Shown piece after piece: positions 2,583 to 31,419 of a stretch of 64,000 bases of DNA. Below the pieces are notes generated by a model. The model was not told the origin of the DNA and searched no databases. It worked only from the letters and a program-made list of their open reading frames with translations. Each line of letters begins with the position of its first letter. Position 1 is the stretch's first letter. The translations under genes were made by a program, and so were the position numbers. This DNA comes from a virus: positions 1-64,000 of the IMG/VR virus record IMGVR_UViG_3300046002_007491; one strand, given 5' to 3'.

Positions 2583-2654
2583 GCTACTTCTCTACCAACT
2601 CCTTTGCGTATTCTTTAGGTGGTTTCATAATTGCTAAAATATTAAAATTGAACT

Positions 2655-3127: not shown

Positions 3128-3155
3128 AATCTAAATATTTTAACGATTCCTCGTG

Positions 3156-3389: not shown

Positions 3390-3391
3390 AG

Positions 3392-3652
3392 TTATTTAAT
3401 TTGATTGTCCTTGCAATAACTTTTTAAGTTCGCTATAACTTGATCCTTACCTAATTTTGATTCTAAACAATAAAGAGCGTACTCAACCATATCTTTAGCC
3501 GAGAAGTCATTAAAATCATCTTTTTCGGCTATCAAGCTACCATCTTTTTCAAAAACCTGCAATACCACTCTAATCGGATTCAAATCAGAACCATCGCCAA
3601 CAGTCACTAATCTTGAAATTATTACTTCTTTACATTCTATATTCGCTTCCAT
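3392..3652 (-). CDS. Hypothetical protein
   Basis: 86-aa ORF in a tightly packed operon. Confidence 0.7.
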   Translation of the reverse strand: MEANIECKEVIISRLVTVGDGSDLNPIRVVLQVFEKDGSLIAEKDDFNDFSAKDMVEYALYCLESKLGKDQVIANLKSYCKDNQIK

Positions 3653-3656
3653 AATT

Positions 3657-4103
3657 TTAAATCTTTTTACTATTCTCGTTTAACAAATTTTCCTCAGCAA
3701 TTTCTTTTACTTCATTACCGCTTGCGGTCGATTTTTTTTCAACCCCAGATACCTTCACAAAATACCCGAATTCGCCCGCTTTCTTCGCCTTCACAAACGC
3801 AATATTCACCACTTCAGCAGTATCTTTATTCGTGTACTCATTCACATTGGTCCTGATCCAACCAACAAATGAATCCATACGTTCCTCGCTACCTGTCAAT
3901 TTAGCAACTACTTTTTTAATCTTAGGCGACACAGATTCTTTTACAACCAAAGGCGTTAATATTTTATGAACCGCTGTTTTACTCAATCCTACAACTCTAG
4001 CAATCTCTCTTTCAGGCTTCCCTTCATTAAACATCTTGAAAACATCAGCGTTCCTTTTTTCCTTATCCATGACAAATACATTTATTAAATTAATATTTGA
4101 CAA
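3657..4103 (-). CDS. Helix-turn-helix DNA-binding protein (true start probably ATG 4070)
   Basis: MFNEGKPEREIARVVGLSKTAVHKIL is a typical HTH. Confidence 0.75.
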   Translation of the reverse strand: MSNINLINVFVMDKEKRNADVFKMFNEGKPEREIARVVGLSKTAVHKILTPLVVKESVSPKIKKVVAKLTGSEERMDSFVGWIRTNVNEYTNKDTAEVVNIAFVKAKKAGEFGYFVKVSGVEKKSTASGNEVKEIAEENLLNENSKKI

Positions 4104-4115
4104 ATCTAAATACTC

Positions 4116-4312
4116 TTGGTCTCTTTTCCTAATGTTTGGTCACTTTTTTTTATTGAAATTTATTTTATTCCTTTTTCATTGGTCACCATATTTGGTCTTA
4201 AACCTATCTGTTGTTGACTTTAACCTGCTTTGGTCACCACTAAAACTACTCTTTTTACTTGTTTTTGATAGTTTTGGTCACCATATAATACTTCTTGGTC
4301 ACTCTTGGTCAC
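4116..4312 (+). repeat. Cluster of TTGGTCAC direct repeats
   Basis: Exact copies at 4136, 4179, 4230, 4274, 4295, 4305; TTGGTCT variants at 4116 and 4192. Confidence 0.85.
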
Positions 4313-5230
4313 CTCGTTTTGATAGTTTTTAATATAGAAAGAGTATATTACCCCTTAGTATAATACCATGGTTTCTGGGCGCTGATCCTCAAAAGGAAAA
4401 CGATTTTTTTTTTGATACGGGGGTTCTTTTTTTCAATTCCATTTCTAAAACGTTTTGACTTTTATAACTTGATTTACAACGTGTTACGTATAAATTAAAC
4501 TCGTTTTCGTGTTTGGTTCTGGTGCTGAAGTTCATTTTTATAATCTTATTACGATTGTGTTTTAAATTACTAACTTACTAGCTGTCAATGAATTATAATT
4601 TACATTTATGGTTTACTCCGATTTATTGCTTTTGTGATCCTTTCCAGGCTTCGCGTGAAGTGTTGATTTTTAAGGCGTTGCGCCTCTTCGGGTCCTACAA
4701 TATTCCTACAAATTAAATTAAAACATCGTTAAAACGTCGTTAATTACAAGAAATTTAAAAACGATGAAATGATACTATTTTTTTTTATTTGTTTCTTATA
4801 TGGTTTGTGTTTGTGTTTCTTGGAGAGCTGCCGCACTCTTGTTATTGGCAAATCTGAGATATTTCAGGACATTATTAGTCAATTTTATGACATTTTAAGT
4901 CAACAATAATTAAAAATTAAGCGAAATAAGGCACGATAAAGTATTTTAATTAATATTTTAGTCTTTGAATGTTTACTTTGTTTTAAAATAGCGTTTCTTT
5001 TGTTGTGTGTTGGTCCTGGTGTTTGTTTAGTTCCTTTGCTCTGGTGTTTTGCTTGGATAATTGGCAAATTTGCGATATTTCAACTTCAAACCTCAAAAAC
5101 CTCTTTATTCTTGTATGCTTTAAGCATATTTAATCAATCTTATTTGTAAGAATATACTACAATGTTAATGTAGTTCGTCGATAATTAATGTATTTTAACG
5201 ATTTTATTAGTTTGGTTTATATTGTCGTTG

Positions 5231-5238
5231 TAGGTTTG
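5231..5238 (+). promoter_or_regulatory. Bacteroidota sigma-A -7 element (TAGGTTTG) upstream of the early genes
   Basis: Matches TAnnTTTG, about 45 bp before ATG 5281; TTTG at 5211. Confidence 0.6.
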
Positions 5239-5280
5239 GCAAAGAATTAGAAACGAATATAAATTTAATCTTTATTTATT

Positions 5281-5673
5281 ATGCGAACTTTCAACCAAAA
5301 TTTTTTAATCGACGATATTAAAATGCTGAAAATTCAAGAATTGCACGATCTTAAAAATTTGTATTTGAATGCAAAAAAATTTGATAAAGCCGAAGAGATT
5401 CAAGACAAATTAAATAGTTTTAAAAGTTTCTGTAATTGGGCAAATGATGCACAAATTTTAGAAGAGGTTAAAAGTAGGTTAACCGATTTTTATCAAGTTT
5501 TAGCGGGTTATTATTATACAATTGCTGAAGACTTTGCCGAAAATCCATTTATTAAAATTGATAGGCTAAAAAAGGCTGTTATTTGTTGCAATCATTTAAA
5601 GCAACATTGTAAAGACGCTGAAATTTACGCGAACAAATATATTTGTCAACAAAATAGAAACTATTTAAAATAA
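5281..5673 (+). CDS. Hypothetical early protein
   Basis: 130-aa ORF, first gene of the rightward block. Confidence 0.75.
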   Translation: MRTFNQNFLIDDIKMLKIQELHDLKNLYLNAKKFDKAEEIQDKLNSFKSFCNWANDAQILEEVKSRLTDFYQVLAGYYYTIAEDFAENPFIKIDRLKKAVICCNHLKQHCKDAEIYANKYICQQNRNYLK

Positions 5674-6005
5674 TCATTATGCAAAAATTCAATCTTTTAT
5701 CCGACAAAACGCAAGGCAAGATATTGTTATTTATTACGGTGTTTTCCTCTTGTGGTTTACTAGTTCTAATTAGCGAATTCACAAATATTATCAATTTTAT
5801 AATTTAATTATCATGGAAGCATTAAAAATTAGAATTCAATGCCCTTCAGAAAGAACAAAAACCGTAGGAACATTTTTATCGGGAACCGAAACAGGCAAAC
5901 AATATACAAAAACATACTCTTGTGCGGTTGATTTGTTTGACAGTTCAGAATATCAAATTTTAAAAAATAGAATAGAAAAATAATTTAATCTTAATACTTT
6001 AAAAC

Positions 6006-6713
6006 ATGGAAAATTTATCTAAACAATTGACAAATGAAGCATTAAAAAGACAAAATGAAAGTCTTGCTTCTATTCGCAAAATTACTACTAATGAAGCGGG
6101 AAAACTAGAATGGTATTTAATACAATTATTGCCAGCAAGCAAAAAAAGACACACTTTTGAAAGTGTTACAGAATTGAAAAGTTATTTGGTTGATAGGCTA
6201 AAAAATCAAACTATCAAAAAAATTGAATCCTTACAAAAGGAATTAGTATTTAATGAATCATTGCAGGAAATTGAATCTTTAACTATTAACGTTGAATGGG
6301 AAAAATCTAAAATGTGGGGAAACAATCCGAATGCTTCGGCCTATGTTCCTAACGTTGGAGAAGTGTGTAGCGGTTCGATTGGCGGGTGTGGTTATGACAA
6401 AGAAAGTACATCAGTCGCAAAGGTTTTAAATCAAGTTCCCCAATTTAGAAAACTATTATTTGAGCTAAAAAATAAACGTTCAAATTGCAAAAAACAAAAC
6501 CGCGAAGTTTTTGGTTATGGTGCTGGCTATGGTATTTTACCAAGTTTTGAGGGCGGTGTGGGCGTTAATTGTTACGATCGTGTATTTAACGCTATTGGAT
6601 ATAAATTTGAAACTGTTTCAAGTGGTAAAACATTCGACGTTTACCGAGTTTCAAAAGTTACGCCAAAGGAGCAAAAAAGAAAATCTACAAAATTATATAG
6701 TTACTCTAATTAA
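6006..6713 (+). CDS. Hypothetical early protein (GGCGYDKEST motif)
   Basis: 235-aa ORF. Confidence 0.85.
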   Translation: MENLSKQLTNEALKRQNESLASIRKITTNEAGKLEWYLIQLLPASKKRHTFESVTELKSYLVDRLKNQTIKKIESLQKELVFNESLQEIESLTINVEWEKSKMWGNNPNASAYVPNVGEVCSGSIGGCGYDKESTSVAKVLNQVPQFRKLLFELKNKRSNCKKQNREVFGYGAGYGILPSFEGGVGVNCYDRVFNAIGYKFETVSSGKTFDVYRVSKVTPKEQKRKSTKLYSYSN

Positions 6714-6785
6714 AAATCCATGTTGCAAAACAACCGAACACGAAAGTTATTAGGTTGTTTTATTCAACTTTAAAAAATCAAAATT

Positions 6786-7157
6786 ATGCAAACAACTGAA
6801 AAAATATTATCTGAGAATGAACGCATACAAAAGTTCATTAAAGACTACCAATTGAAAAACGATTATAACCCGCGATTTTTTGAGCAGTACAACGCAAAAT
6901 TTAATGCTGAATTTAATCAATTTTTAATTGATGGTAACTTTTCACAACAAACTATTAATTTGTTCTTTACGGGCTGTTTATTTGAAGTTTACCAATTGCA
7001 GCCAGAAAATTTAAAAGAACTTTTACAGCGTTATGATTTTGACAATCTCAACTATAAAGACTGCGAAAATTTGTTAATTGAAGTGCAGAAAATCGGTTAT
7101 ACTTTTGAGTTTGGACTCGACGCGGTTCCGTTTAACTTACAAAATTACACGCCATGA
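6786..7157 (+). CDS. Hypothetical protein, C-terminus paralogous to 9095..9316
   Basis: YKDCE...QKIGYTFEFGLDAVPFNL. Confidence 0.8.
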   Translation: MQTTEKILSENERIQKFIKDYQLKNDYNPRFFEQYNAKFNAEFNQFLIDGNFSQQTINLFFTGCLFEVYQLQPENLKELLQRYDFDNLNYKDCENLLIEVQKIGYTFEFGLDAVPFNLQNYTP

Positions 7158-7587
7158 AATTGACAATTTATAAAAACTGGTTTTTGTGTTACAATGGTAA
7201 AGTTTATGCAAATAAAATTACCGATATTCATTCACGAATTAATAATAAAGCAAATATTAAAAGCGATGAAACAGCAATTTAAAATTATTCGTTTTTGGAT
7301 CGGCGCAAATTTCAATCAATTGTTTTGTGTTTGGTTTTTGGTTTGGTTCCTGGTGCAGGTTTTGCGCTCCCTTTAATTAGCAAATTCAAGATATTTTAAC
7401 CTTTAAATTTTAAAATTATGTATTTACACGTGAGAAAAAATCCGAAAACTGGATTTAAAGAAACCTTAAACAGCGAAATGCGATTTATTAAGGGATGGAA
7501 AAGAGTCAAGTAATACTGAAGAGAATTCAATATTCGAAACGAGGTTTTTGCCTCGTATATTACAAATCAAATTTTAATCTATTAACT

Positions 7588-8028
7588 ATGAAAACAGAAT
7601 ATAAAAAACTCGTAAAATTGATCGACCAAATAATGATTAATTCATTATTCAGATCCGGCGGAACAAAAACAGAAGAAGAAGCAATTAACGCAGCTTATTT
7701 AATTCAATCCCCTAAAAAATACAACGGCACCGGTTTTGAATTGTGCTTTTTAGACAAGGGAAAAACTGAAAAGGATTTTTGTGTTATCGCTATATTTTTA
7801 AATCCATATAACGAACTTGTTTTTAGTTATGGTTATAATTATTACGGCAAAATGTACTACCAACACAAGTTTAAAAGAGAAGAAGAAAAAACTATTTTGC
7901 TGCTGGATTATGTTTTTAAATACGCGGATTGCGAAAACTTTAAAGAAAGAGTTTTTAATTTTATCAATCAAAACGAATCCGAAAAAGTAAAAGAAATTTT
8001 TTCAAATCAAAATTTATTAACCGCTTAA
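7588..8028 (+). CDS. Hypothetical protein (ORF track starts at 7495; ATG 7588 has the better leader)
   Basis: ORF with AT-rich leader. Confidence 0.75.
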   Translation: MKTEYKKLVKLIDQIMINSLFRSGGTKTEEEAINAAYLIQSPKKYNGTGFELCFLDKGKTEKDFCVIAIFLNPYNELVFSYGYNYYGKMYYQHKFKREEEKTILLLDYVFKYADCENFKERVFNFINQNESEKVKEIFSNQNLLTA

Positions 8029-8039
8029 AAAAGCAAAAA

Positions 8040-8264
8040 ATGAAACCGACAAACTTAAATATGTTATTTCAGGACCAAATAAGAAACTTTGCGCACCTGG
8101 TAACAAGCGAAACACAAACTAAAAACGATTTTTTAGCCACAATTAAGCAAAATTACTCGCTTAACAATCCAAAGGTTAATTTATTTTTTATCGCTTGTGA
8201 GAAGTCAGATTTTGAAACTATAAAACTAAATGCTAATCGAGATGCAATTCTCTTCAATCAATAA
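8040..8264 (+). CDS. Hypothetical protein
   Basis: 74-aa ORF in operon. Confidence 0.7.
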   Translation: MKPTNLNMLFQDQIRNFAHLVTSETQTKNDFLATIKQNYSLNNPKVNLFFIACEKSDFETIKLNANRDAILFNQ

Positions 8265-8268
8265 CATT

Positions 8269-8472
8269 ATGACAGACTTAAAATCCTCAACAATCAACTA
8301 CAAAGAAATTACAATTTCGGAACGATACAGAAGCAAATATCAAGTTTCAGTATTTGATACAGAAAGACAGAAAACAACGTACAGAAACTATTTTAAAACG
8401 CTCCAGGAAGCCGAAAAATGTTTTGACGAACTCGTCGAAATCCAACAAGAAAAAATGTGCTATCAATTTTAA
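8269..8472 (+). CDS. Hypothetical protein
   Basis: ORF in operon; likely start ATG 8269. Confidence 0.65.
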   Translation: MTDLKSSTINYKEITISERYRSKYQVSVFDTERQKTTYRNYFKTLQEAEKCFDELVEIQQEKMCYQF

Positions 8473-8484
8473 AAAGTAAATATT

Positions 8485-8829
8485 ATGCAAAATATCAAAG
8501 CATCAAAACAGCTAAATAAAGACAAAACAAAGTTTAGTTTGTACTTCTTTGCTCTATTGAAAGAGGGCGCATATATTGAGCGACAAATAATGATTATTGG
8601 CGGGCGTGAAGTTGTTTCTTATCAACTTAAAAAAGACCTTCACGAAACAGAAGAAAGACCTTATAAAAATACTATTTACGGTCAATTAAATTTTGAAGCC
8701 GTAAAGCAATTTAAAAGTAAAGGTTTTAAAATTCGTGAAGCAAAATTGAAATGCTATGCGGGAGGACAAACCGAACAATTCTTTTTTTCTGACTATCAGA
8801 AACCGATGTTTAACTATTCAATTAATTAA
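8485..8829 (+). CDS. Hypothetical protein
   Basis: 114-aa ORF in operon. Confidence 0.75.
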   Translation: MQNIKASKQLNKDKTKFSLYFFALLKEGAYIERQIMIIGGREVVSYQLKKDLHETEERPYKNTIYGQLNFEAVKQFKSKGFKIREAKLKCYAGGQTEQFFFSDYQKPMFNYSIN

Positions 8830-8831
8830 TT

Positions 8832-9083
8832 ATGGCGCCAGACTTATCAAATTTTCAAAGCAACACTTTTGACTTTGAATTTATCAATGACTTCACAAAA
8901 ATTTCGTGTTATCATTATTACGGAAAACATAAAAAATCTAGCTTTAAAATAATTTGCAATATAGAAAACACAGAAATTTCGACCGTAAAAAAAGCTATTG
9001 CGAGAATTAAAAAAGCTATTGCCGAAGCAAAACAAAATTGTACTCCTTTACATGGATGCACCGATTATTTACCAACAATCTAA
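8832..9083 (+). CDS. Hypothetical protein
   Basis: 83-aa ORF in operon. Confidence 0.7.
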   Translation: MAPDLSNFQSNTFDFEFINDFTKISCYHYYGKHKKSSFKIICNIENTEISTVKKAIARIKKAIAEAKQNCTPLHGCTDYLPTI

Positions 9084-9094
9084 AAACTAACACC

Positions 9095-9316
9095 ATGCAA
9101 GATCTATTCGAAACACCCGAAAAAATTCCACAAGAAGTAAATAAAATCCTCGACAAATATCGTGAGGGAGATTATACTTACACCGACTGCGAAGAGATGC
9201 AGAAAGAACTGCAAAAAGTAGGTTTTACTTTTGATTATTATTTAGATGCTATTCCTTATAATCTTCGTGAGGTTGCGCCAATTAACGAATTTGAACAAAT
9301 TATTCACTCAAAATAA
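9095..9316 (+). CDS. Hypothetical protein, paralog of the 6786..7157 C-terminus
   Basis: YTDCE...QKVGFTFDYYLDAIPYNL; likely start ATG 9095. Confidence 0.75.
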   Translation: MQDLFETPEKIPQEVNKILDKYREGDYTYTDCEEMQKELQKVGFTFDYYLDAIPYNLREVAPINEFEQIIHSK

Positions 9317-9324
9317 CAGAAACT

Positions 9325-9642
9325 ATGAAAACATTCATAATTAAAACAACAGAAGATACTTTTAAAATCGTCGATATTGACTTCTTTAAAAATAGACTGA
9401 AAAGACAAACTTCTTTGGACAACATTCATCGAAAAAACCTATTCAAAGACGATGATAAAAAAGGACTCGCAAATTTTATCAAAGGAGTTATTTCAATTCC
9501 ATTTGATGTTAGTGATTTTGATTTAGCAATAATGAAAAGTGTTTCCGACGAAAACGGAATTTTTCTAGAAAATGTGTATCAAGAAAAAAGAAAATTGTTT
9601 TGGGGAACCATTTACGACAAACAAAAACTTAAAACCGCTTAA
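9325..9642 (+). CDS. Hypothetical protein
   Basis: 105-aa ORF in operon. Confidence 0.75.
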   Translation: MKTFIIKTTEDTFKIVDIDFFKNRLKRQTSLDNIHRKNLFKDDDKKGLANFIKGVISIPFDVSDFDLAIMKSVSDENGIFLENVYQEKRKLFWGTIYDKQKLKTA

Positions 9643-9644
9643 CC

Positions 9645-9827
9645 ATGAACACAAAAACCCTCACTCGGTCAATTGTCAAAACGCTAAATAAATGGTTTAG
9701 AACACCTCAAAGAGTCTCTTCCACACAATTAGCCACAAAAACCGTAATCATTCAAGAAACGTACAAAAACAAGCAAATTTTGAACGTGTACGCAAATATT
9801 AACTCACGCTATTTAGCGAAAATCTAA
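9645..9827 (+). CDS. Hypothetical protein
   Basis: 60-aa ORF in operon. Confidence 0.65.
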   Translation: MNTKTLTRSIVKTLNKWFRTPQRVSSTQLATKTVIIQETYKNKQILNVYANINSRYLAKI

Positions 9828-13518: not shown

Positions 13519-14769
13519 TTAATTTTTAGCGTTCCAATATTCATTTAATTTTTGAGCGTGTTGTTTTTTAGAAATTTTCACGTAATGAAAGAGCATCTGC
13601 TCGTTCTTCCAACCCATTATCGACAATATGCTATCATTGGGAATTTTGCCGTATAAATTACTCGCCATACTTCTTCTAGCAATGTGAGTGGTGAATAACT
13701 CATAACGTTTGAAATATCCCGTTTCTTTTCTATTGGTTTTAGGATTCCATTTTTTACCGAAAACTAATTCATCAAATTTGCAAATTTGCCCAATTATTTT
13801 AATAGATTTCCCAAACTCATAAGTATTCATCTTTGGAGGTAGCTGACCAAAGTTATTTGAAATTATTTCTTTGATTATTGGGTGAACCGGAATAACAACT
13901 TTGATTTTCGTTTTTTGTGTTGTAATTGTAATGAACGAATCTTTGATGTTTTTTAAATCCAGATTCGTCAAGTAATCGCTACAACGAAGTCCGGTAAATA
14001 CGCCCAAAAGTAAATTCTCTTTGGCAATTTGTAATTTCGGATCAAAACTAAAATCAGTATTGTAAATTTTCAAAACTTCTTCTTCGTTCAAATAAACACC
14101 TTCAATCTCACTACTATCATCATCGACAAAAACTCGCTGCGTAAATGCTGAAGAAACTTTTATTCCTTCTTCGGACGCGCGGGTGCAAAAAAACTTCATC
14201 CTGGATAACGTTCTTTTAATTGTGCTTGGGTTGTAGCCTTCATCTTCAAGAAAATTAGCGAAATTGTAGAAATCGTCAATAGACAAATCCTTCAACACCA
14301 ATTTACCATCAAGCATTTTCTCATAATCCAAAAACAATTCTAAAAAGTCCTCGTATTGCTTTTTCAAATACTTTGGCATCGTTTGTTTGGCTGAAATCTT
14401 CCATTGGTCCGCTTTAGTGTTTAGCCAATTATTAGCAAAGTCAGAATAATAAACGAATACATCTGAATTTACTTGTGAGATTTCCTTTGTAGGACGATTG
14501 AAGCACTCAGAAATGATGTTTTTTACAAATTCCTTATCTATTATCGTTCCTTGGATAAAACTCTCGTTGTAGGCTCTTAAAACGTTTGACTTGAGTTCGG
14601 ATAACTTTTGGTTGATAATTGGTGAATTTGCCGATTGCAATTCTTGGTTCCAATCCCCAACTTCCAAACTAATTCCAATACCACAACTAACGTCGAACTT
14701 ATTTTTATAAAGCCGTAGCATTAGCTGATTGCTTTTTTTTCCGATTTGCAAATTGTAAACTATATTCAT
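13519..14769 (-). CDS. int: Phage integrase (Bacteroidota-type tyrosine recombinase: arm-binding, SAM-like and catalytic domains)
   Basis: 416 aa; FTGLRCSD, QKT, HIARRS, MGW, FHY catalytic motifs. Confidence 0.9.
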   Translation of the reverse strand: MNIVYNLQIGKKSNQLMLRLYKNKFDVSCGIGISLEVGDWNQELQSANSPIINQKLSELKSNVLRAYNESFIQGTIIDKEFVKNIISECFNRPTKEISQVNSDVFVYYSDFANNWLNTKADQWKISAKQTMPKYLKKQYEDFLELFLDYEKMLDGKLVLKDLSIDDFYNFANFLEDEGYNPSTIKRTLSRMKFFCTRASEEGIKVSSAFTQRVFVDDDSSEIEGVYLNEEEVLKIYNTDFSFDPKLQIAKENLLLGVFTGLRCSDYLTNLDLKNIKDSFITITTQKTKIKVVIPVHPIIKEIISNNFGQLPPKMNTYEFGKSIKIIGQICKFDELVFGKKWNPKTNRKETGYFKRYELFTTHIARRSMASNLYGKIPNDSILSIMGWKNEQMLFHYVKISKKQHAQKLNEYWNAKN

Positions 14770-14784
14770 AGTAATTTAATTTTA

Positions 14785-15588
14785 TTAAATTGGTAGCGCC
14801 ATTGATTGTAATACATTTGTGCTTACGTGTGTATAAATTTCAGTAGTTTTTACGTTTGCATGACCTAAGTGTTTTTGAATAATCCTTAAATCAGTTCCAG
14901 CTTCTAGTAAAGCCGTAGCGTTGCTGTGACGAAGTAGATGGAAATGATATTTTTTACCTAGATATTGCTTTACAATAGCGTTGCAACTCGTGGGAGAATA
15001 CTGCGCAAGAGTCTGTCCGTTGAATAAATATTCCTTTGGCTTGTACTCGGAATAATACTCCCTAAGTATTTTAATAATCTTTTCAGACAAAGCCACTATC
15101 CTATCTTTTCTGCCTTTAGATTGTCTAATTGTAATAATCATTCGTTTACTATCAACGTCAACTATTTTTAGGTTACATACTTCTGAAACCCTCATTCCTG
15201 TACTATATGCTAAAGCAATAATAGCTTTATGCTTTTTGTTTTCAATTTTTGAAATCTGGTCTAACAGAAACTGCTTTTCAATTATTTGAGGAAGTTTCTT
15301 TTCCGAACGTGGATATTCGATATAACGGAACTTCATAGGTTGTTTAATCGTAATTTTATAAAACAACTTTAAAGCAGAAATAGCGTGGCACATTGCGTTT
15401 CTTGTTTTGAATTGTAACAACCAATCTTTAATGGCTTTTTCATTAATCTTTGCGGGTTCTGTAAAATCTTTTTCTTGGCTTCTTAAAAACATTTCAACTT
15501 GACAAGAGTAATTTTTAATCGTATTATCAGAATAGTTTTTTAAAACTAAATCTTTCCTATACGTTTCGAGGTGCTTAGGAATTTGCAT
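14785..15588 (-). CDS. Integron-integrase-like tyrosine recombinase lacking the IntI-specific insertion; candidate cassette recombinase
   Basis: NYSDNTIKNY SAM-like N-terminus; STGMRVSE, KGRKDR, HLLRHS, LLEAGTDLRIIQKHLGH, TTEIYTHV; ATG lies 52 bp from the first cassette. Confidence 0.9.
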   Translation of the reverse strand: MQIPKHLETYRKDLVLKNYSDNTIKNYSCQVEMFLRSQEKDFTEPAKINEKAIKDWLLQFKTRNAMCHAISALKLFYKITIKQPMKFRYIEYPRSEKKLPQIIEKQFLLDQISKIENKKHKAIIALAYSTGMRVSEVCNLKIVDVDSKRMIITIRQSKGRKDRIVALSEKIIKILREYYSEYKPKEYLFNGQTLAQYSPTSCNAIVKQYLGKKYHFHLLRHSNATALLEAGTDLRIIQKHLGHANVKTTEIYTHVSTNVLQSMALPI

Positions 15589-15600
15589 GGCTTATATATT

Positions 15601-15646
15601 GATTTTATTGGTTATACATTTAATTTTGTACATATAGTAGTTGGCA
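15601..15646 (+). promoter_or_regulatory. attI-like recombination site, crossover G15640|TT
   Basis: GTTGGCAGTA pairs with TACTGCCAAC (16455), but no attC hairpin lies upstream; adjacent to the recombinase start. Confidence 0.8.
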
Positions 15647-15652
15647 GTAATT

Positions 15653-16117
15653 TTACCGAACATTGCGTGCCAATTGCAATTCGAGTTTTTTAATGTTAAT
15701 CATTTGAGAAACTACATTACAAATTGCGTTCGCTTGATTAATGTACGTTTTGTCTTTTTGTACTTTTTGAATAGTATCTAAAAGAATTATACTCAAATCA
15801 TTTTCTTGTATTGCTACAATATTTTTTTCGTTTTCTTCCATTTTATTAGGGTTGAGTTCGTCTTTTTTTACTTGTATTGATACATTTTTTAATTCCATTT
15901 GTCTTTTTTCTAAAACTCCTTCTTTTAGTTTTACTCTTACTGGAATTAAATTCTCAATAAATAAATCTATTTCGTTTTCAAAGAAATTATAAGTTTGCTT
16001 ATCTGTAAAAACAACATAAGTAACTCCTACTTTTTTCCATTTAGTTATAGTGATAATTTTATCCTTATAATTAAATTTCTTATCAATTAATAAATTTAGC
16101 TTTTGTTGCATCTTCAA
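15653..16117 (-). CDS. Hypothetical protein, cassette A1 cargo
   Basis: 154-aa ORF. Confidence 0.8.
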   Translation of the reverse strand: MKMQQKLNLLIDKKFNYKDKIITITKWKKVGVTYVVFTDKQTYNFFENEIDLFIENLIPVRVKLKEGVLEKRQMELKNVSIQVKKDELNPNKMEENEKNIVAIQENDLSIILLDTIQKVQKDKTYINQANAICNVVSQMINIKKLELQLARNVR

Positions 16118-16361
16118 GTTGTTGTTTTAGCTCTAAATTCAAGTCATAAAGTTTTATAATCTCGATTGATAATTTCTTTATTTGCTCGTCTTTGGTTTCT
16201 TTTTCTTCATTCATCGCTCCGTAATATCGGGTGCAAACAGATGTAGCAGTTCTTCCAGTTTTCAATGAAGCAATAAAAAACGCTTCTCTTAAATTATTAG
16301 GGTTTTTTAAAACCTCTTGTTTAATAATTTCTTCTTCTTCTGTTGTCCAATTTTTTGCCAT
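16083..16361 (-). CDS. Myb/SANT-like HTH protein with coiled coil, cassette A1 cargo
   Basis: KNWTTEEEEIIK...GRTATSVCTRY. Confidence 0.7.
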   Translation of the reverse strand: MAKNWTTEEEEIIKQEVLKNPNNLREAFFIASLKTGRTATSVCTRYYGAMNEEKETKDEQIKKLSIEIIKLYDLNLELKQQLEDATKAKFIN

Positions 16362-16454
16362 AATATTATTTTTAGTAAAGTTTTCCTAAAGTGGTCGAAT
16401 TTGACCACTTTAAATATTAAATAGTTAGTAAAATTTTCCTAACATAAAAAAAAC

Positions 16455-16590
16455 TACTGCCAACAGCCGTTTTGATATAGTGGGGTTTTTGTCATCAACT
16501 GAAACACCAGTTTGTACTTGTAATCGTTAGGCATAACCGAAAGACGGTTTTTGTTTTTCCCCACCATCTCAAAGCGGCAGGACGTTATAA
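16455..16590 (+). repeat. attC-like site A1
   Basis: TGCCAAC-A-GCCGTTTTGA...TCAAAGCGGC-AGGAC-GTTATAA. Confidence 0.88.
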
Positions 16591-16597
16591 GAAATAG

Positions 16598-16780
16598 CTA
16601 TAAAACTACTTCAAAGAACCATTTATCGTAATATCTATAATTACCAGTATTGTCTTTTACATAATAATCATCACAATCATCATAATCAGGATATTGTTCG
16701 TAAATTTCACCTACAGTTACATCTGTTACAACGTGTGTCGTTCTTGGAACTGCCATAATACATTTTAGTTTTTTCATCAT
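16598..16780 (-). CDS. Hypothetical protein, cassette A2 cargo
   Basis: 60-aa ORF filling the cassette. Confidence 0.75.
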   Translation of the reverse strand: MMKKLKCIMAVPRTTHVVTDVTVGEIYEQYPDYDDCDDYYVKDNTGNYRYYDKWFFEVVL

Positions 16781-16803
16781 ATTTAGTTTAAATTACCCGC
16801 TAC

Positions 16804-16884
16804 TTCTTATAACAGGTGTTTGTAAATACCAGCCGAAAATACTATGCGTGTAGGCTGGCATCTACAAGCACCGAACCGTTATGT
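16804..16884 (+). repeat. attC-like site A2 (short type)
   Basis: TTATAAC-A-GGTGTTTGTA...TACAAGCACC-GAACC-GTTATGT. Confidence 0.88.
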
Positions 16885-16901
16885 GATAGTTTAAAAGACG
16901 T

Positions 16902-17228
16902 TTATCGTTCATTCCAAACCAATTCTAAAGCTGAAATTCCACCACGTTTAGAAGTTTCATCAATATCTAATTTTTCAATAACTTCAATAGCTTTTTTTAC
17001 ATTGTCAAAATAATCCATTTCTAAATTTAAAGGCGTAACGATTAAGTTTAAAAATCCTTCTTGCTCTAAAACTCCACCTACGAAAAACTCTCCACTTGAA
17101 ACTATGTAACATTCAGGCTTTCCATTTCTCCAATATTCTGTTTTCAAACATAAATATCCATCAAATAAAAATAATCCAATAGGGCATTTACCTAGTTTTG
17201 CCGTTTTTTTTTGTTTCTTAATTAACAT
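16902..17228 (-). CDS. Hypothetical protein, cassette A3 cargo
   Basis: 108-aa ORF. Confidence 0.75.
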   Translation of the reverse strand: MLIKKQKKTAKLGKCPIGLFLFDGYLCLKTEYWRNGKPECYIVSSGEFFVGGVLEQEGFLNLIVTPLNLEMDYFDNVKKAIEVIEKLDIDETSKRGGISALELVWNER

Positions 17229-17518
17229 TTCTTTTCTATTTTTTCAGTTAATAATTTATATAATTCTGTTGGGGTTAATCCTTTAAATGAAACGCTTTTA
17301 CTCTTTCCATTTTTACCTCCGATACAATCTCTAAAATCCATTCTCGTTTGATTTCCTTCTTGAAATACAGATAGTTTCAGTTCATCAATAATATAAGTCA
17401 CTTTTTTAATACAATCTTCTTGGGTTACATCAATGAAGTTTAAATATTTAGTTTCTTCATCTTTTTTTGTAATAGTAAGTCTGATTAAATGAATTGGCTT
17501 CGGTTCGTATATCTTCAT
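17222..17518 (-). CDS. Hypothetical protein, cassette A3 cargo
   Basis: 98-aa ORF. Confidence 0.75.
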   Translation of the reverse strand: MKIYEPKPIHLIRLTITKKDEETKYLNFIDVTQEDCIKKVTYIIDELKLSVFQEGNQTRMDFRDCIGGKNGKSKSVSFKGLTPTELYKLLTEKIEKKC

Positions 17519-17586
17519 AATAAATCTGTTTTTGTTTAATAAAGTAGTTAGCTTTATTGTTACTTTTGAACTTTATCGTAAAAACC

Positions 17587-17723
17587 ATCACATAACAGCA
17601 ACTTGGCAATATGTCGGTTTTAGTCATTAATTTAAACATTGTCTTGTATCTTAAAGTTCAGTCATAAACTGAAAGTCTTGGCTTCCTTAATCCGCCACAT
17701 CGCCAAGTTGCAAAACGTTAGGG
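17587..17723 (+). repeat. attC-like site A3
   Basis: ACATAAC-A-GCAACTTGGC...GCCAAGTTGC-AAAAC-GTTAGGG. Confidence 0.9.
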
Positions 17724-17728
17724 AACAG

Positions 17729-17989
17729 TTATTCAACTATTGTACAATCTAGAAAATTCTCAAAATCGTTACCAAATAAATGATAAATGCTCTCAAACTC
17801 CTTACTTCCTTCGTCCCATATTGCAGGGCAACATTGATTTTCAGTATAAAGTCCATTATCATATTCAAAATCTCCTTCAACCAATGTTATTATTTTTCCT
17901 TCAGTTGCGTAATGTTCTTTTGCATATTGTTTTCCAAATCGGATTTTTACGCCAACTATTAATTTTTCTTCAAATTGTTCTTTTGTCAT
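17729..17989 (-). CDS. Hypothetical protein, cassette A4 cargo (likely start ATG 17989)
   Basis: MTKEQFEEKL...; the ORF-track extension runs into the attC. Confidence 0.75.
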   Translation of the reverse strand: MTKEQFEEKLIVGVKIRFGKQYAKEHYATEGKIITLVEGDFEYDNGLYTENQCCPAIWDEGSKEFESIYHLFGNDFENFLDCTIVE

Positions 17990-18010
17990 TGTGTTAATTT
18001 TAGTAACCGA

Positions 18011-18144
18011 TTCCCTAACAATGCATAACACTAATTACGGTTTCGGTCTTTAATTTATAGTTTAGTTTGTATCAGTGATACGGTTTTTAATCTGAATGTT
18101 TCGGCTTACTTTATCCGTAACTAGAGTTATGCTCAACGATGTGT
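18011..18144 (+). repeat. attC-like site A4 (right core reads GAT)
   Basis: CCCTAAC-AAT-GCATAAC...GTTATGC-TCAAC-GATGTGT. Confidence 0.8.
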
Positions 18145-18158
18145 GCAACGCGCACGTC

Positions 18159-18237
18159 GCACACATCAACCGCGCGCTACACACATCTACGCGCTAAGCG
18201 CAACGTAGACGCAACGCCTAGCGCGCGGTTGTTATGG
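18159..18237 (+). repeat. Atypical GC-rich attC-like hairpin A5 of an ORF-less 93-bp cassette
   Basis: GCACACATC-AACCGCGCGCTA...TAGCGCGCGGTT-GTTATGG; 12-bp perfect stem. Confidence 0.65.
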
Positions 18238-18265
18238 TTAATGCTACAATTCGTTTTTAAATTCA

Positions 18266-18625
18266 CTATCCTTTATAATCTGCTACGGACTGTGAAAATA
18301 TATATTGATTTTTACCTTTTTCAACTTGACTATTAAATTTAGTCAATTCAAGGATGTTTAAAAATTCATCAAAACTTACAGGAGTTCCTTTGTATGTGGA
18401 AATATCGTAACCTTCATCTCCACTACAAGCTCCTGAATAACCCGTTGAAACTTCTATTCTATTTGAAGTGTCGTAATAATTAGGGAATTTTACCTCTGCC
18501 CAATCTTGCCCGCGCCATTCTCCTTTACAGTATCTATGAAAAAAACAAAGACCACTCGACGTTGGTTGTTCTGTTAGTCCTTTAGTTAGTAAAAATTCTC
18601 TAATTTGTTTTTTTAAATCTGTCAT
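18266..18625 (-). CDS. Hypothetical protein, cassette A6 cargo
   Basis: 119-aa ORF. Confidence 0.8.
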   Translation of the reverse strand: MTDLKKQIREFLLTKGLTEQPTSSGLCFFHRYCKGEWRGQDWAEVKFPNYYDTSNRIEVSTGYSGACSGDEGYDISTYKGTPVSFDEFLNILELTKFNSQVEKGKNQYIFSQSVADYKG

Positions 18626-18650
18626 AATTTTTAGTTTTAACTACCCGCAC

Positions 18651-18785
18651 TAACCATAACAGCCGTTTGGCAATATGGCAATATCAGGCTTAATTTATAG
18701 TTTGTTTTGTGCCTTACGCACTTGTAATAATCTTAATAATTCGGTGTGCTTTTTTGCCACATCGCCAAGCGACGAACCGTTATAA
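18651..18785 (+). repeat. attC-like site A6
   Basis: CCATAAC-AGC-CGTTTGGC...GCCAAGCG-ACGAACC-GTTATAA. Confidence 0.88.
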
Positions 18786-18879
18786 GCAAGTGGTGGCTCG
18801 AAGCAATTCAACTTCTTCGGTGTCAGAAGTAAATCTAGCATTTCTGCTTTCAACCAAATTCACCTATGCCACCACCAGA

Positions 18880-18999
18880 CTTATAACAAAGTATAACCGC
18901 AATTTGTAAACAATTCTCTATCTTTATACAGTCTGTTAGATTCCTTGTTCCTTTCGTGTCTGCATCCTACAAACTGCGGTTATACTCGGTACGTTATGC
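18880..18999 (+). repeat. attC-like site A7
   Basis: TTATAAC-AA-AGTATAACCGCA...TGCGGTTATACT-CGGTAC-GTTATGC. Confidence 0.88.
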
Positions 19000-19005
19000 G
19001 TAATT

Positions 19006-19206
19006 TTACCAAACGAACCATCCAAAGAATTTTTCTAAATAAGGCAAAACGCCTAACCACATTATAAATTTGAATATTACATATCCTAAAAATTTACCAA
19101 AATTCACTGATAAAATAATTAGTAAAATATAAAATACGACCTTAAAAAAACGACGCATAACATCGTGTATAAGAGATTGCTTTGATTGGTCTGTATCTTT
19201 CGACAT
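19006..19206 (-). CDS. Small membrane protein, cassette A8 cargo; annotated start lies inside the attC
   Basis: 66 aa, hydrophobic C-terminal part. Confidence 0.65.
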   Translation of the reverse strand: MSKDTDQSKQSLIHDVMRRFFKVVFYILLIILSVNFGKFLGYVIFKFIMWLGVLPYLEKFFGWFVW

Positions 19207-19289
19207 AGTTTTTTAATTTAAAGATTAGTAATATTTTGGAGGTATGGGTTTCAATCGGCGTAGCCTCCTATACACGCCGTCCGTTATAG
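19153..19289 (+). repeat. attC-like site A8
   Basis: GCATAAC-AT-CGTGTATA...TATACACG-CCGTCC-GTTATAG. Confidence 0.85.
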
Positions 19290-19301
19290 TCAACTCCAAT
19301 G

Positions 19302-19331
19302 CAAATGTAAAAAACAATTTTTGATAAACAA
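19302..19331 (-). promoter_or_regulatory. Leftward sigma-A promoter reading into array A and the integrases
   Basis: Minus strand TTG (19331-19329), 19 nt, TACATTTG (19309-19302) fits the Flavobacterium TTG-N19-TAnnTTTG consensus. Confidence 0.7.
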
Positions 19332-19509
19332 TACAATTTCTGTACAATTTTAATTTTAAAACACAATCCTATTCCGATTGTAGTGCAAACACTAACTATT
19401 CAATGATTTCAACACCTTTTAAAAAGTAAGAATTGCTTTACTCCGAGTTTTAAAATACAATTTTTTGTAAAAATAATACAATTATTGTCCGATTATTCAA
19501 AAACATTTA

Positions 19510-19517
19510 TATCTTTG
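19510..19517 (+). promoter_or_regulatory. Rightward -7 element TATCTTTG for the recombination/replication operon
   Basis: TAnnTTTG 30 bp before ATG 19547. Confidence 0.7.
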
Positions 19518-19546
19518 CGTCAGTATAAATCTAAATCACAATAAAA

Positions 19547-28166: not shown

Positions 28167-28249
28167 CCATGGTAAATCGCCCAATAATATTCGCAGCAGT
28201 AATAGTCCTAGGAATGCTAGTTATGAAGTTTTACTTCGATAAAAAAAAG

Positions 28250-28378
28250 CTATAACGTTTTCGGGCTTGGCGAAGTGGCTGACCCCGAAGCTAAATAGGA
28301 TTACTAAACTTTAAAATTAAGACCGAATGATTGATAGAATAACTGAACAGCCATTTTGCCAAACCCGTGTTAGTGGCA
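28250..28378 (-). repeat. attC-like site C3
   Basis: Minus strand CACTAAC-A-CGGGTTTGGC...GCCAAGCCCG-AAAAC-GTTATAG. Confidence 0.88.
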
Positions 28379-29109
28379 GTACTTTTGTGAATGCTGATTG
28401 CTTCGATGTTTTTCCTTTTATTGAGGATAAATCAATTGATGCGATTATTTGCGATTTACCCTACGGAACAACTAACTGTAAATGGGATAGTGTTTTACCA
28501 TTGAATGATTTATGGAATGAATACAAAAGAGTTATTAAAGATAATGGAGTAATAGTTTTGACATCTACTCAACCGTTTACAAGTGTTTTGATTGGAAGTA
28601 ATTTAAAAGAGTTTAAATATGAATGGATATGGCAAAAATCACACGCAACAGGGCATTTAAACTCTAAAAAACAGCCGATGCGACAACACGAAAACATTTG
28701 TGTATTTTATAAAAAACAATGCACTTATAACCCACAAATGATTAAAAAGAGTTATTTAGATAAACGAACCAAAAGCGGTCAAATTGAAAATGTAGATGTT
28801 TATAATAGCTTTACAAAAGTAGATAGGCAAATTGATGTTACTGATGGCTACCCAAAAACAATACAATATTTTGCAACTCCATTTAAAGGCGGTGAAGGAG
28901 GTAAACACCCAACTCAAAAACCATTATCGTTAATGGAGTACCTTATAAATACTTACACAAACGAGGGCGACACGGTTTTAGATAACACAATGGGTTCAGG
29001 AACAACAAATTTAGCCTGTATCAAATTAAATCGCAAATCAATTGGAATAGAAAAGGAAAAACAATATTACGATGTCGCTGTTCGTAGGGCTTCGGAGTAT
29101 TGCCACTAA
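28327..29109 (+). CDS. DNA methyltransferase, N6A/N4C beta class; cassette C3 cargo
   Basis: DLPY (motif IV) precedes HPTQKP and DNTMGSGTT (motif I). Confidence 0.93.
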   Translation: MIDRITEQPFCQTRVSGSTFVNADCFDVFPFIEDKSIDAIICDLPYGTTNCKWDSVLPLNDLWNEYKRVIKDNGVIVLTSTQPFTSVLIGSNLKEFKYEWIWQKSHATGHLNSKKQPMRQHENICVFYKKQCTYNPQMIKKSYLDKRTKSGQIENVDVYNSFTKVDRQIDVTDGYPKTIQYFATPFKGGEGGKHPTQKPLSLMEYLINTYTNEGDTVLDNTMGSGTTNLACIKLNRKSIGIEKEKQYYDVAVRRASEYCH

Positions 29110-29239
29110 CGGATTGGGGCTTTATGAAGTTGGGGTTTTTGAAAGCCGAATGTTGAGTAAAGCACCAAAGTTCAATAGAATACCAAAAGTTGGGGTTTAG
29201 CACTTCCGCCCCAATTTCATAAAACCCTTGTTATCTGCA
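29104..29239 (-). repeat. attC-like site C2
   Basis: Minus strand AGATAAC-AA-GGGTTTTATGAAATTGGGG...CCCCAACTTCATAAAGCCC-CAATCC-GTTAGTG. Confidence 0.88.
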
Positions 29240-29294
29240 TCTGCGGTTTTCAAGGCAGGAAGTTTCAAATTATTCACTAATAAATTAAAATAAA

Positions 29295-30017
29295 ATGTCA
29301 GAATTAAAAGTAAGAAAAGCGTTTCAAGTAGTCATTAGAAAAAAAGAATATGATGTATTTGATATTGAAGGTAAAGAACACGAAGGATATAACGATGTGC
29401 CAAAAACTTGGTGGTTATATTTTTCAGATAGATTACCCGAAGGAACATTGCCGCCACACGATAGTGAATACTTTGTTCCTTATCACGTTAGCATTGAAAG
29501 GTTGAATTGGGATATTAAGTTTACACAAAATACAAGCACCAAAGAAAAATGGGGCGAAACGCAATTTAGAAGTAATACTCATTGTGAAATGTGGTGCAAT
29601 GGTAAATTAGTTTATTCTTTTGGTACAACAGGCGGAAGTAGAGGGATGAGTTTTGCAATGGCAAAAGCACAATATATGCAAACAATGCTATGTGAACACT
29701 CCTTCAATTTTTTAGATGCTCAAAAAGAACAAGGTAGAAAAATATGGTGGTATGGATTACCTGCAACAGTTGGTATTAGAAGTGGCGATGAAAAATGGGA
29801 AATAACTATTATACCTGATTACTCTACTGGAATTGATAAAGAAACTTGGTGGTATGAATTTAAAACTCGTAGGTCAAATATCAATGAAGTAGTTGATAAA
29901 GACAATGATATTGCAGTATTTGATGAAGATGATGACAACAAAGATTATATCAATTGGGGTGATGCTTTTTCTGACCAACATATTGACTGGCATAGAAGCG
30001 GTAATGTTTCAAGTTAG
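29295..30017 (+). CDS. Hypothetical Trp-rich protein, cassette C2 cargo
   Basis: 240-aa ORF. Confidence 0.85.
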   Translation: MSELKVRKAFQVVIRKKEYDVFDIEGKEHEGYNDVPKTWWLYFSDRLPEGTLPPHDSEYFVPYHVSIERLNWDIKFTQNTSTKEKWGETQFRSNTHCEMWCNGKLVYSFGTTGGSRGMSFAMAKAQYMQTMLCEHSFNFLDAQKEQGRKIWWYGLPATVGIRSGDEKWEITIIPDYSTGIDKETWWYEFKTRRSNINEVVDKDNDIAVFDEDDDNKDYINWGDAFSDQHIDWHRSGNVSS

Positions 30018-30035
30018 TAGTATGGTAGCAGTTGC

Positions 30036-30115
30036 AGATAACGTTTGTCGCTTGTACTAGGCGGCTATGCGGTTGCGTATATTCTGCCGCTTAGTACAAA
30101 CGATTGTTAGGGTGC
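30036..30115 (-). repeat. attC-like site C1 (short type)
   Basis: Minus strand CCCTAAC-AA-TCGTTTGTACTAAGCGGC...GCCGCCTAGTACAAGCGA-CAAAC-GTTATCT. Confidence 0.88.
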
Positions 30116-30144
30116 GTAGTGGGTAATTAAAAATAAAAGAAGTT

Positions 30145-30360
30145 ATGACATTAAAAGAAAAACTTTACGAATATTCTGGAGATCCATTGGATTGTAATCC
30201 AGTAGACCAACAGGATGCGCAAAATTTAGTAAAGATAGCCGATGATTACGCTGTCGCATTTGCTAAATGGTATTATTGTAAAAAACTTTTGTTGACTTAT
30301 AGCGCTACAAAAAAAACAAGTGAATTATTAGAAATCTATAAAAAAGAAAAGGGATTATGA
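30145..30360 (+). CDS. Hypothetical protein, cassette C1 cargo
   Basis: MTLKEK...KIADDYA...KKEKGL; paralog of the next gene. Confidence 0.75.
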   Translation: MTLKEKLYEYSGDPLDCNPVDQQDAQNLVKIADDYAVAFAKWYYCKKLLLTYSATKKTSELLEIYKKEKGL

Positions 30361-30554
30361 CACTAAAAGAAAAAATTTTCACTGTATTCTATGAAACTGC
30401 ATCCGCTGATTTAATTGAAAAAATAGCTGATGAATACGCTAAAGAAGTTTTAAGGACTTATATAAGCAGCAGGGCTTTACAATATAAACAAAGTCAAGGT
30501 GATTATAGTTTAGATGAACTGCTAAGTATAATTAAAAAAGAGAAAGGATTATGA
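30357..30554 (+). CDS. Hypothetical protein, cassette C1 cargo; tandem paralog
   Basis: MTLKEK...KIADEYA...KKEKGL. Confidence 0.75.
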   Translation: MTLKEKIFTVFYETASADLIEKIADEYAKEVLRTYISSRALQYKQSQGDYSLDELLSIIKKEKGL

Positions 30555-31366: not shown

Positions 31367-31419
31367 CTACTTGCTAGGTCTTATAAAAGTATTACAAATC
31401 AATTAAAACTACACGCCAA

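Follow-up and report, generated by a model that had tools for sequence, protein, structure and literature searches.

Does a tailed phage possess its own platform for capturing and shuffling gene cassettes? The question is raised by positions 14785–19289 of the virus record IMGVR_UViG_3300046002_007491 (IMG/VR; a single record of 72,769 bp, the first 64 kb of which were analysed and are called the window here), where an intact tyrosine recombinase gene, product P0001, adjoins a chain of eight short units (array A), each closed by an imperfect hairpin of 82–139 nt. A first-pass annotation had read this locus as an integron-like system of recombinase, attI-like site and eight attC-type cassettes recombining at G|TT. 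The tailed phage identity of the record was confirmed by PHROG matches to a portal protein (8.9e-102) and a large terminase (4.1e-147), with further matches to virion structural proteins, a DnaB-like helicase and a RecT-like protein; its nearest DNA matches among the phage collection were, without exception, Flavobacterium phages. On the strength of the sequence comparisons given below, the locus is quite probably a phage-borne, site-specific gene-cassette platform, integron-like in its working and not an integron by its enzyme. The earlier reading is supported in this form by covariation in the hairpins, by the linkage of enzyme and array in related loci, by homology that ends at the core and by breakpoints that fall on it.

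All eight pairs of core and complement quoted in the annotation are present where it had placed them, and so is the intact recombinase, whose ATG lies 52 bases from the first GTT core at 15640. When perfect pairing was counted outward from the GTT/AAC cores, the first bases of the eight units were complementary to the left core of the same unit over 10, 10, 10, 9, 9, 10, 8 and 9 nt, compared with a match of merely 1–6 nt between the left and right cores within one hairpin. A scan followed by sequence reading revealed five further units elsewhere in the genome, grouped at 1619–2585 and 28247–31367 (clusters B and C), and offset complementarity of 8–10 nt was found in 13 of 13 cassettes (eight in array A, five in B and C). 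Other core pairs of the genome (n = 195) had a mean of 4.1 nt; the five pairs reaching 8–9 nt were all similar boxes of other cassettes. The offset complementarity first noticed in array A is confirmed as real and far beyond chance. The features are given below, with the length of offset complementarity in nt and with bit scores of R1, the hairpin model used for site searches (its default filters miss hairpins in some loci, where they are recovered with the filters off):

14785–15588, minus strand: candidate cassette recombinase P0001, a XerA-like tyrosine recombinase of 267 residues without the IntI insertion.
15589–15642: attI-like site, no hairpin; plus-strand end ...TAGTAG|TT, gene strand AA|C-TACTATATG.
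15641–16584, plus strand: cassette A1; minus-strand open reading frames (ORFs) 15653–16117 and 16083–16361; hairpin 16455–16593; 10 nt; 95.7 bits.
16585–16878, plus strand: cassette A2; minus-strand ORF 16598–16780; short hairpin 16804–16887; 10 nt; 56.3 bits.
16879–17717, plus strand: cassette A3; minus-strand ORFs 16902–17228 and 17222–17518; hairpin 17587–17725 (minus-strand fold −21.4 kcal/mol, z −4.95); 10 nt; 125.3 bits.
17718–18138, plus strand: cassette A4; minus-strand ORF ~17729–17991; hairpin 18011–18146 (fold z −0.70), with GAT instead of GTT as its right core; 9 nt; 94.4 bits.
18139–18231, plus strand: cassette A5; 93 bp, G+C-rich, no ORF; hairpin 18159–18240 (−25.5 kcal/mol, z −4.55); 9 nt, GATGTGTGC/GCACACATC.
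18232–18779, plus strand: cassette A6; minus-strand ORF 18266–18625; hairpin 18651–18786; 10 nt; 117.5 bits.
18780–18993, plus strand: cassette A7; no credible ORF; hairpin 18880–19001 (fold z −4.57); 8 nt; 35.8 bits.
18994–19291, plus strand: cassette A8; minus-strand ORF 19006–19206; hairpin 19153–19291; 9 nt; 89 bits; terminal core G|TTATAGTC.
1619–2585, plus strand: cluster B; half-site at 1619; two cassettes with minus-strand genes; hairpins 1895–2034 and 2448–2585; 10 and 10 nt; 119.4 and 120.7 bits; no adjacent recombinase.
28247–31367, minus strand: cluster C, in mirror orientation; three cassettes with plus-strand genes; hairpins 28247–28378, 29101–29239 and 30033–30115; half-site GCACCCTAAC ending at 31367; 10, 10 and 10 nt; 90.4 and 86.4 bits; no adjacent recombinase.

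Clusters A, B and C each open with a hairpin-less half-site, and every unit in them closes with a hairpin, when read on the strand that the annotation had taken as the attC top strand; the same choice is backed by a 4,938-bp block that sets the Polaribacter phage Freya_10 apart from Freya_1 (below), which begins with TT and ends with a hairpin followed by G on that strand. The alternative layout, with cassettes on the gene strand, each ORF followed by its hairpin and the recombinase distal, was rejected because in it a hairpin would stand first and a half-site last in all three clusters, and a hairpin would likewise come first in the Freya block. On the gene strand, the entry points of the three clusters read AAC|TACT, AAC|TACT and AAC|TAGT and, by reading, the empty form of arrays A and C would be one sequence, AGTAG|TTATAG. 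Cluster C lies directly downstream of the DnaB-like helicase gene, and two of its cassettes encode DNA methyltransferases (PHROG 67, DNA methyltransferase, 8.4e-73). The last 8.8 kb of the genome contain no hairpin site. All ORFs of the three arrays are antisense to the attC top strand, those of array A lying on the minus strand and reading towards the recombinase; two array-A units, 18139–18231 and 18780–18993, have no credible ORF. The eight array-A cassette proteins gave nothing above curated cut-offs against Pfam and PHROGs.

The hairpins form one family. Twenty-five sites (13 from the window, six from Flavobacterium phage 6H and six from phage snusmum6-1) were aligned on the better-folding strand, and RNAalifold found compensatory changes in 11 of the 12 pairs it predicted. 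A structure drawn by hand has a 4-bp core stem, a bulge of 5 nt in the 5' arm, a stem of 19 bp and a single nt ahead of GTT; under it, 82.3% of cells were paired compared with 60.7% in shuffles, and the covariation score was 0.52 against 0.17 in shuffled alignments (reached by 0 of 500 shuffles; slid controls 0.09–0.14). One position was a G.T pair in 22 of 22 phage sites and another was unpaired, mostly C.A, in 18 of the 25; the unpaired spacers of the two arms measured 5 nt and 1 nt, and a canonical extrahelical base was not evident in this alignment. Chromosomal sites from outside the model building (n = 79) gave 95.8% paired cells against 68.4%, a covariation of 0.685 against 0.175 and an invariant G.T pair in 79 of 79, all on an alignment fitted to the model. 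As to strand, the annotation had proposed folding the bottom strands, and the minus strand indeed folded better than the plus strand at all eight array-A sites. Its claim of a hairpin in each unit holds for every unit by family alignment and covariation, and by folding energy clearly exceeds shuffles in five of eight (z ≤ −2.6).

At least seven hairpins of this family were found by R1 in phage 6H (locus L001, 4331–8111), where a P0001 homologue at E ≤ 1e-20 was not found among the matches listed. By eye, one cassette of that array (~5234–5969) encodes a protein with a KxDG nucleotidyl-transferase motif, ligase-like in appearance.

If the sites resemble those of integrons, is the enzyme an integron integrase? 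Integron recombination is held to depend on an IntI-specific domain that grips the extrahelical bases of the folded attC site. P0001 has the phage-integrase catalytic domain (PF00589, 6.6e-39), an N-terminal SAM-like domain and a complete catalytic set (R133, K158, H217, R220, H243 and Y252). Its best NCBIfam model was XerA_Arch (187.1 bits, cut-off 220), followed at a greater distance from their cut-offs by XerC (160.4 against 335) and XerD (158.5 against 330), and the archaeal XerA structures 5HXY and 4A8E aligned to it from end to end. VchIntIA (2A3V), in contrast, aligned in two blocks, between which P0001 has 31 residues (181–211) and IntI 79 (183–261), and the IntI-specific insertion of roughly 48 residues is thus missing. 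XerA-like names the nearest family, to which P0001 does not belong by curated threshold. With its intact ORF and its full catalytic set, P0001 thus looks like an active recombinase of Xer-like type that has no IntI-specific domain; the annotation, which called it an intact tyrosine recombinase in an integron-like system, was right about its integrity and its place beside the array, and needs correction if an integron integrase was meant.

That the locus could be an ordinary integron, with canonical IntI and attC and merely located in a phage, is suggested by its layout (recombinase, attI, attC-type hairpins, G|TT core), by a partial match of P0001 to the IntI model TIGR02249 and by recombination of a site from a related Polaribacter phage by IntI1 (PMC9892861, in its available part). 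It is contradicted by the domain test: the match to TIGR02249 amounts to 145.6 bits in two stretches with a cut-off of 265, that to the second curated IntI model, NF011946, to 95.4 bits with a cut-off of 435, and the IntI domain is absent. The 1-nt/5-nt spacer geometry, in which no canonical extrahelical bases are seen, and cassette genes that run antisense to the attC top strand argue in the same direction, and we regard this explanation as barely credible. A published classification, in the part of it available, describes an 'integron-like' subgroup of recombinases in which the insertion 'is not fully conserved' (PMC8138268). Directly downstream of P0001, a second tyrosine recombinase is encoded on the minus strand (13519–14769, 416 residues; PF00589 2.5e-07 and a SAM-like N-terminal domain). 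An IntI-type insertion is absent from both ORFs at 13519–15588, the only two scanned, no whole-genome screen for tyrosine recombinases having been run. The 416-residue protein probably serves the integration of the phage itself; the short enzyme would then be free for cassette work.

The association of enzyme and array was followed in 33 viral contigs carrying a P0001 homologue (identity 49–85%), of which 24 could be assessed, having 430 bp or more of sequence in front of the recombinase gene. R1 hairpins lay on the gene strand within 1 kb upstream of the recombinase in 23 of these 24 loci, with filters-off searches needed for seven (L003, L006, L007, L011, L027, L029 and L035); the remaining locus, L033, gave weak hits only. 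Up to seven hairpins precede the recombinase gene, as in L019, L010, L009 and L012, and a 93% identical copy of the A8 hairpin adjoins the recombinase in L007. When the 5' flanks of 12 loci were aligned, similarity ran in all 12 from the ATG to the AAC core and not beyond, a different cassette end being joined at each locus; BLAST of the closest loci against the genome likewise showed similarity stopping at 15642–15646. The attI-like site claimed beside the recombinase is therefore present as a conserved, hairpin-less stretch between core and ATG in 12 of 12 aligned loci. In a local tblastn search of the fetched loci with 14 reading frames (B1 and B2b uninformative), no homologues of cassette ORFs were found beyond the two methyltransferases and a 22-residue piece of c8.

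One viral contig, L028, contains two back-to-back arrays at 4536–9771, with seven minus-strand hairpins (4536–7372) and six plus-strand ones (7694–9771), the latter set leading to the recombinase at 10001. Outside the viral set, L051, a 7.2-kb contig in a metagenome-assembled genome labelled Fibrobacter, has a 38% identical recombinase (2999–3808) and, 3 kb apart on the opposite strand, a 104-bit hairpin (6973–7110); this contig may come from a phage or from Bacteroidota and have been mis-binned.

Linkage of this kind bears on the view that the arrays are passive cargo, that is, CALIN-like relics (clusters of attC sites without an integrase) built by a host chromosomal system or taken from host arrays, while the recombinase serves dimer resolution or prophage integration. 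Clusters B and C, which have no recombinase beside them, would fit such a view, as would the published phage attC clusters that lack an integrase (PMC9892861, available part) and the fact that the P0001 homologue of Freya is the sole integrase annotated there and was read as a sign of temperate life (PMC8776804, available part). Against it, 23 of the 24 assessable viral loci have recombinase gene and hairpin-less site directly beside the array, in constant orientation, and a separate 416-residue integrase lies next door for integration.

The hosts supply a further argument for passive cargo, as they have homologous recombinases and large arrays of their own. R1 matches at E ≤ 1e-6 were obtained in 87 of 101 Flavobacterium genomes, with counts reaching at least 32 in a single genome, and 58 of the 101 contained a P0001 homologue (E ≤ 1e-45), 57 of them together with hairpins; among the 14 genomes without hairpins one has a homologue. 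(A separate search for relatives in bacterial contigs gave 15 loci and reaches close relatives only.) In three fetched chromosomal arrays, 84 of 85 hairpin matches (E ≤ 0.01) fell into three runs of 36, 28 and 20; in the two arrays covered as far as the attI end, a 40–41% identical homologue without the insertion stood there, and in the third the homologue lay ~10 kb beyond the fetched stretch. The polarity of these arrays differs from that of the phage. Chromosomal ORFs of at least 90 residues ran opposite to the model strand in 16 of 20 and 18 of 21 cases and the recombinase gene points into the array, as in classical integrons; gene strand and recombinase direction are both reversed in the phage. 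Phage cassettes are therefore not simply copied host arrays. The description of array A as an integron layout loaded with phage-type small genes thus stands as to the cassettes and needs correction as to the genes, which are inverted relative to those of integron and Flavobacterium chromosomal cassettes.

The same comparison bears on a reading of the hairpins as transcript-level elements (terminators, stabilisers or processing sites), with mosaics produced by homologous recombination between repeats. The strand that folds better in the phage, where it also supplies the G.T (G.U) pairs, corresponds to the sense transcript, repeats of 80–140 nt can support homologous exchange, and hairpin 2 recurs at 90% identity in phages with different neighbouring genes. 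In the chromosomal arrays, however, the same strand-specific features are antisense to the genes. Since the folding strand is sense in the phage and antisense in the chromosomes, the constraint is on a DNA site and not on mRNA. Neither an attI-like site without a hairpin, nor attI-like junctions that have only AAC in common, nor cassette-specific complementarity of 8–10 nt across each gene, which has no terminator role, agrees with transcript elements, and scanning the entire window against Rfam (gathering thresholds) yielded 0 matches. We consider this explanation very unlikely.

Are units gained and lost at the core in nature? The annotation had proposed comparing related phages for this, and tblastn identified 34–36% identical P0001 homologues, annotated 'integrase', in the cultured flavobacterial phages Freya, Danklef, Leef and Ingeline. 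Ten Polaribacter phage isolates, Freya_1 to Freya_10 (genomes of 43,978 to 48,920 bp; recombinase 34% identical to P0001), differ in units gained or lost exactly at AAC|. Freya_10 and Freya_1 are set apart by a 4,938-bp block that holds 12 ORFs and lies immediately in front of the recombinase gene, with the left junction ..TTTACAAC|GGATA followed by a hairpin and the right junction ..TTGCTAAC|ACCCCTATAAC; AAC alone is common to both, Freya junctions in general having ~3–4 bp in common. On the non-coding strand the block has TT at its start and hairpin plus G at its end, the form of an integron cassette. Freya_9 is without the proximal 304-bp unit, Freya_8 without a 902-bp unit, Freya_5 ends after the 902-bp unit, and Freya_6 has an additional 441-bp unit absent from Freya_10. 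Across Freya_1, 5, 6, 9 and 10, five different unit ends (..TACAAC, ..TACCAAC twice, ..CTACCAAC and ..TGCTAAC) are joined to AAC|ACCCCTATAAC, a site ~45 bp before the recombinase start codon. This gain and loss of units at the recombinase-proximal site among co-isolated phages is not what passive cargo would lead one to expect and, taken with linkage and polarity, leaves that explanation improbable, with a higher standing than the other two rivals.

In the 441-bp unit of Freya_6 (L042, 465–935), a small ORF (520–735) seemingly lies inside the long hairpin loop, with a second ORF after it; an ORF within the variable loop would be unusual.

Closer to the phage itself, parts of the window were present in four lake-water metagenome runs, all as contigs (joints with sides of fewer than 30 letters were excluded). 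One near-identical contig of run X2 (record 11) showed 0 differences over 14739–15642 and diverged there, its other 357 letters not aligning to the window. Depth in X2 was 0 over 15840–16307 within cassette A1, and contig loose ends at 16582, 16882, 17720 and 18137 fell at the cores or a few bases from them. Summed contig depth in the bin 16776–17009, which holds hairpin 2, was 567 compared with ~80 in neighbouring bins in run X1, and 125 compared with ~5 in X3; a hairpin 2 variant is therefore multi-copy in these lake metagenomes.

Taken as a cassette platform, the locus would work as follows. The XerA-like recombinase would join a folded, single-stranded hairpin site with the double-stranded, hairpin-less attI-like site in front of its own gene. 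The folding strand of the attC-like hairpin would run 5' ..AAC, 5-nt bulge, ~19-bp stem (with G.T and C.A), variable loop, 1 nt, GTT.. 3', and would be cut inside the AA|C / G|TT core. A circular cassette would enter beside the recombinase gene and, once inserted, would have the outer half of its own stem next to that gene and its hairpin on the distal side, which would account for the offset complementarity. Units would be removed by excision between two hairpins, or between hairpin and attI, and cassettes could also be placed at the secondary sites B and C, whose entry sequences resemble attI (AAC|TA(C/G)T). The array-A genes are probably read from a predicted promoter in the 19292–19540 spacer at the far end of the array; inspection of the conserved hairpin loops by eye for a Bacteroidetes-type promoter gave no convincing match. 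The cargo plausibly consists of accessory genes, the sole recognisable ones being orphan DNA methyltransferases with a plausible anti-restriction role.

Several observations weigh against this interpretation. The insertion missing from P0001 is the very part with which IntI grips extrahelical bases in the folded attC site. Three of the eight array-A hairpins (z −0.70, −1.66 and −0.44) cannot be told from shuffles by energy, their support coming instead from the family alignment and covariation; the seed sites 18159–18240 and 30033–30115 were missed by R1 (E ≤ 0.01, default filters). The 90% identical copy of hairpin 2 in phage 6H lies between unrelated ORFs and, by reading, two of about six units of the 6H array break the offset rule, so hairpins and genes can be uncoupled. 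The co-occurrence of enzyme and hairpins in 57 of 58 Flavobacterium genomes does not represent independent events, because genomes of one genus are related; and since host genomes carry the homologous enzyme, some or all of the phage events could be host-catalysed. The clearest series of gain and loss belongs to Freya, a distant relative with a 34% identical recombinase, whose hairpins match R1 weakly (37 and 25 bits), and the metagenome data, being contigs, make visible variant arrangements and not activity, circles or excision junctions.

How far, then, is the system new? A screen of 10,705 phage genomes by Qi et al. (2023; PMC9892861), made with IntegronFinder and HattCI, yielded three complete integrons, all with canonical IntI and in temperate phages, together with 17 attC clusters without integrase. 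With integrons and attC clusters in phages in print since 2023, the remark in the first-pass annotation that it knew of no described equivalent was too strong. Polaribacter phage P12002L holds one of these clusters, with cassettes encoding methyltransferases, and IntI1 proved able to recombine one of the sites in it. Both P12002L and the phage of the window are Flavobacteriaceae phages with DNA methyltransferase cassettes between hairpin sites, and our clusters B and C (two and three hairpins) resemble the P12002L cluster (a CALIN) in lacking an adjacent recombinase; the window methyltransferases share 54% and 44% identity with their P12002L counterparts. The P12002L sites matched R1 weakly (28 bits at best), and no P0001 homologue at E ≤ 1e-20 was seen in that phage among the matches listed (40 of 46). 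The P12002L sites were treated there as canonical attC and tested with IntI1; the available text reports no phage-borne Xer-type recombinase of the P0001 kind, and 'Xer', 'Flavobacterium' and 'Bacteroid' occur nowhere in it (PMC9892861). A review, in its available part, lists Bacteroidota among the phyla with integrons (PMC8618304). Integron parts in phages are thus already published, while a cassette system driven by a short recombinase of the Xer type was not found described for Bacteroidota or their phages in a search that most subscription journals lay outside.

Classical integrons (class 1, Vibrio cholerae) and the phage system have in common a tyrosine recombinase beside a hairpin-less attI, RYYYAAC/GTTRRRY-type cores with G|TT crossover, offset complementarity, one strand that folds better and the occurrence of ORF-less cassettes; the long classical chromosomal arrays with near-uniform sites have their likeness in the Flavobacterium hosts. 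Unlike them, the phage has a XerA-like enzyme without the roughly 48-residue IntI insertion, hairpins with 5-nt/1-nt spacers in which G.T and frequent C.A replace recognisable extrahelical bases, and cassette genes that run antisense to the attC top strand, towards the recombinase. The chromosomal Flavobacterium arrays share with the phage the hairpin family, the core and the recombinase family (38–49% identity) and differ in having genes co-oriented with the attC top strand and a recombinase gene that points into the array. The system stands outside the integron family by the defining enzyme domain and by gene polarity, and most likely works as an integron does.

Xer-family recombinases also act on mobile DNA elsewhere. 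The CTX-phi type of integrative mobile element exploiting Xer (IMEX) uses a folded single-stranded site, and in the pdif modules of Acinetobacter plasmids genes lie between inversely oriented sites; both borrow host XerC/XerD and use dif-like 28-bp sites. Neither is known to build arrays next to a dedicated recombinase gene, and the phage system differs from both in its element-encoded enzyme and in sites that are hairpins of 82–139 nt.

On balance we favour a wider proposition, held with less confidence than the platform itself: Bacteroidota and their phages would share a second, IntI-independent lineage of integron-type capture, with a XerA-like enzyme lacking the I2 domain, folded single-stranded hairpins and an AA|C core, of which phages would run their own copies in opposite gene polarity and swap anti-defence and accessory genes within a single bloom. 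On this view, the proteins annotated as 'integrases' in phages such as Freya, Danklef, Leef and Ingeline would serve cassette recombination and not lysogeny. In the available part of the Freya paper the annotated 'integrase' is taken as a hint of a temperate lifestyle, and the words integron, hairpin and cassette are absent (PMC8776804); if the proposition is true, the 'integrase' of several cultured marine flavobacterial phages, so far evidence for a temperate lifestyle, needs rereading. The IntI-specific domain would not be required for the integron way of life, and a simpler pair of enzyme and site would become available for studying structure-specific recombination. Integron-type gene capture would extend to a phylum where it is barely documented; phages would own such a platform and not only carry fragments of one, with a concrete mechanism for fast turnover of small accessory and anti-restriction genes. 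Freya_1 to Freya_10, as cultured phages with a cultured host, offer a direct test system for the mechanism.

Away from the cassette arrays, at 4100–4320 of the window, the motif TTGGTCAC(C) was seen by eye ~7 times in roughly 220 bp, upstream of a minus-strand ORF (3657–4103); these copies may be operator or iteron-like repeats.

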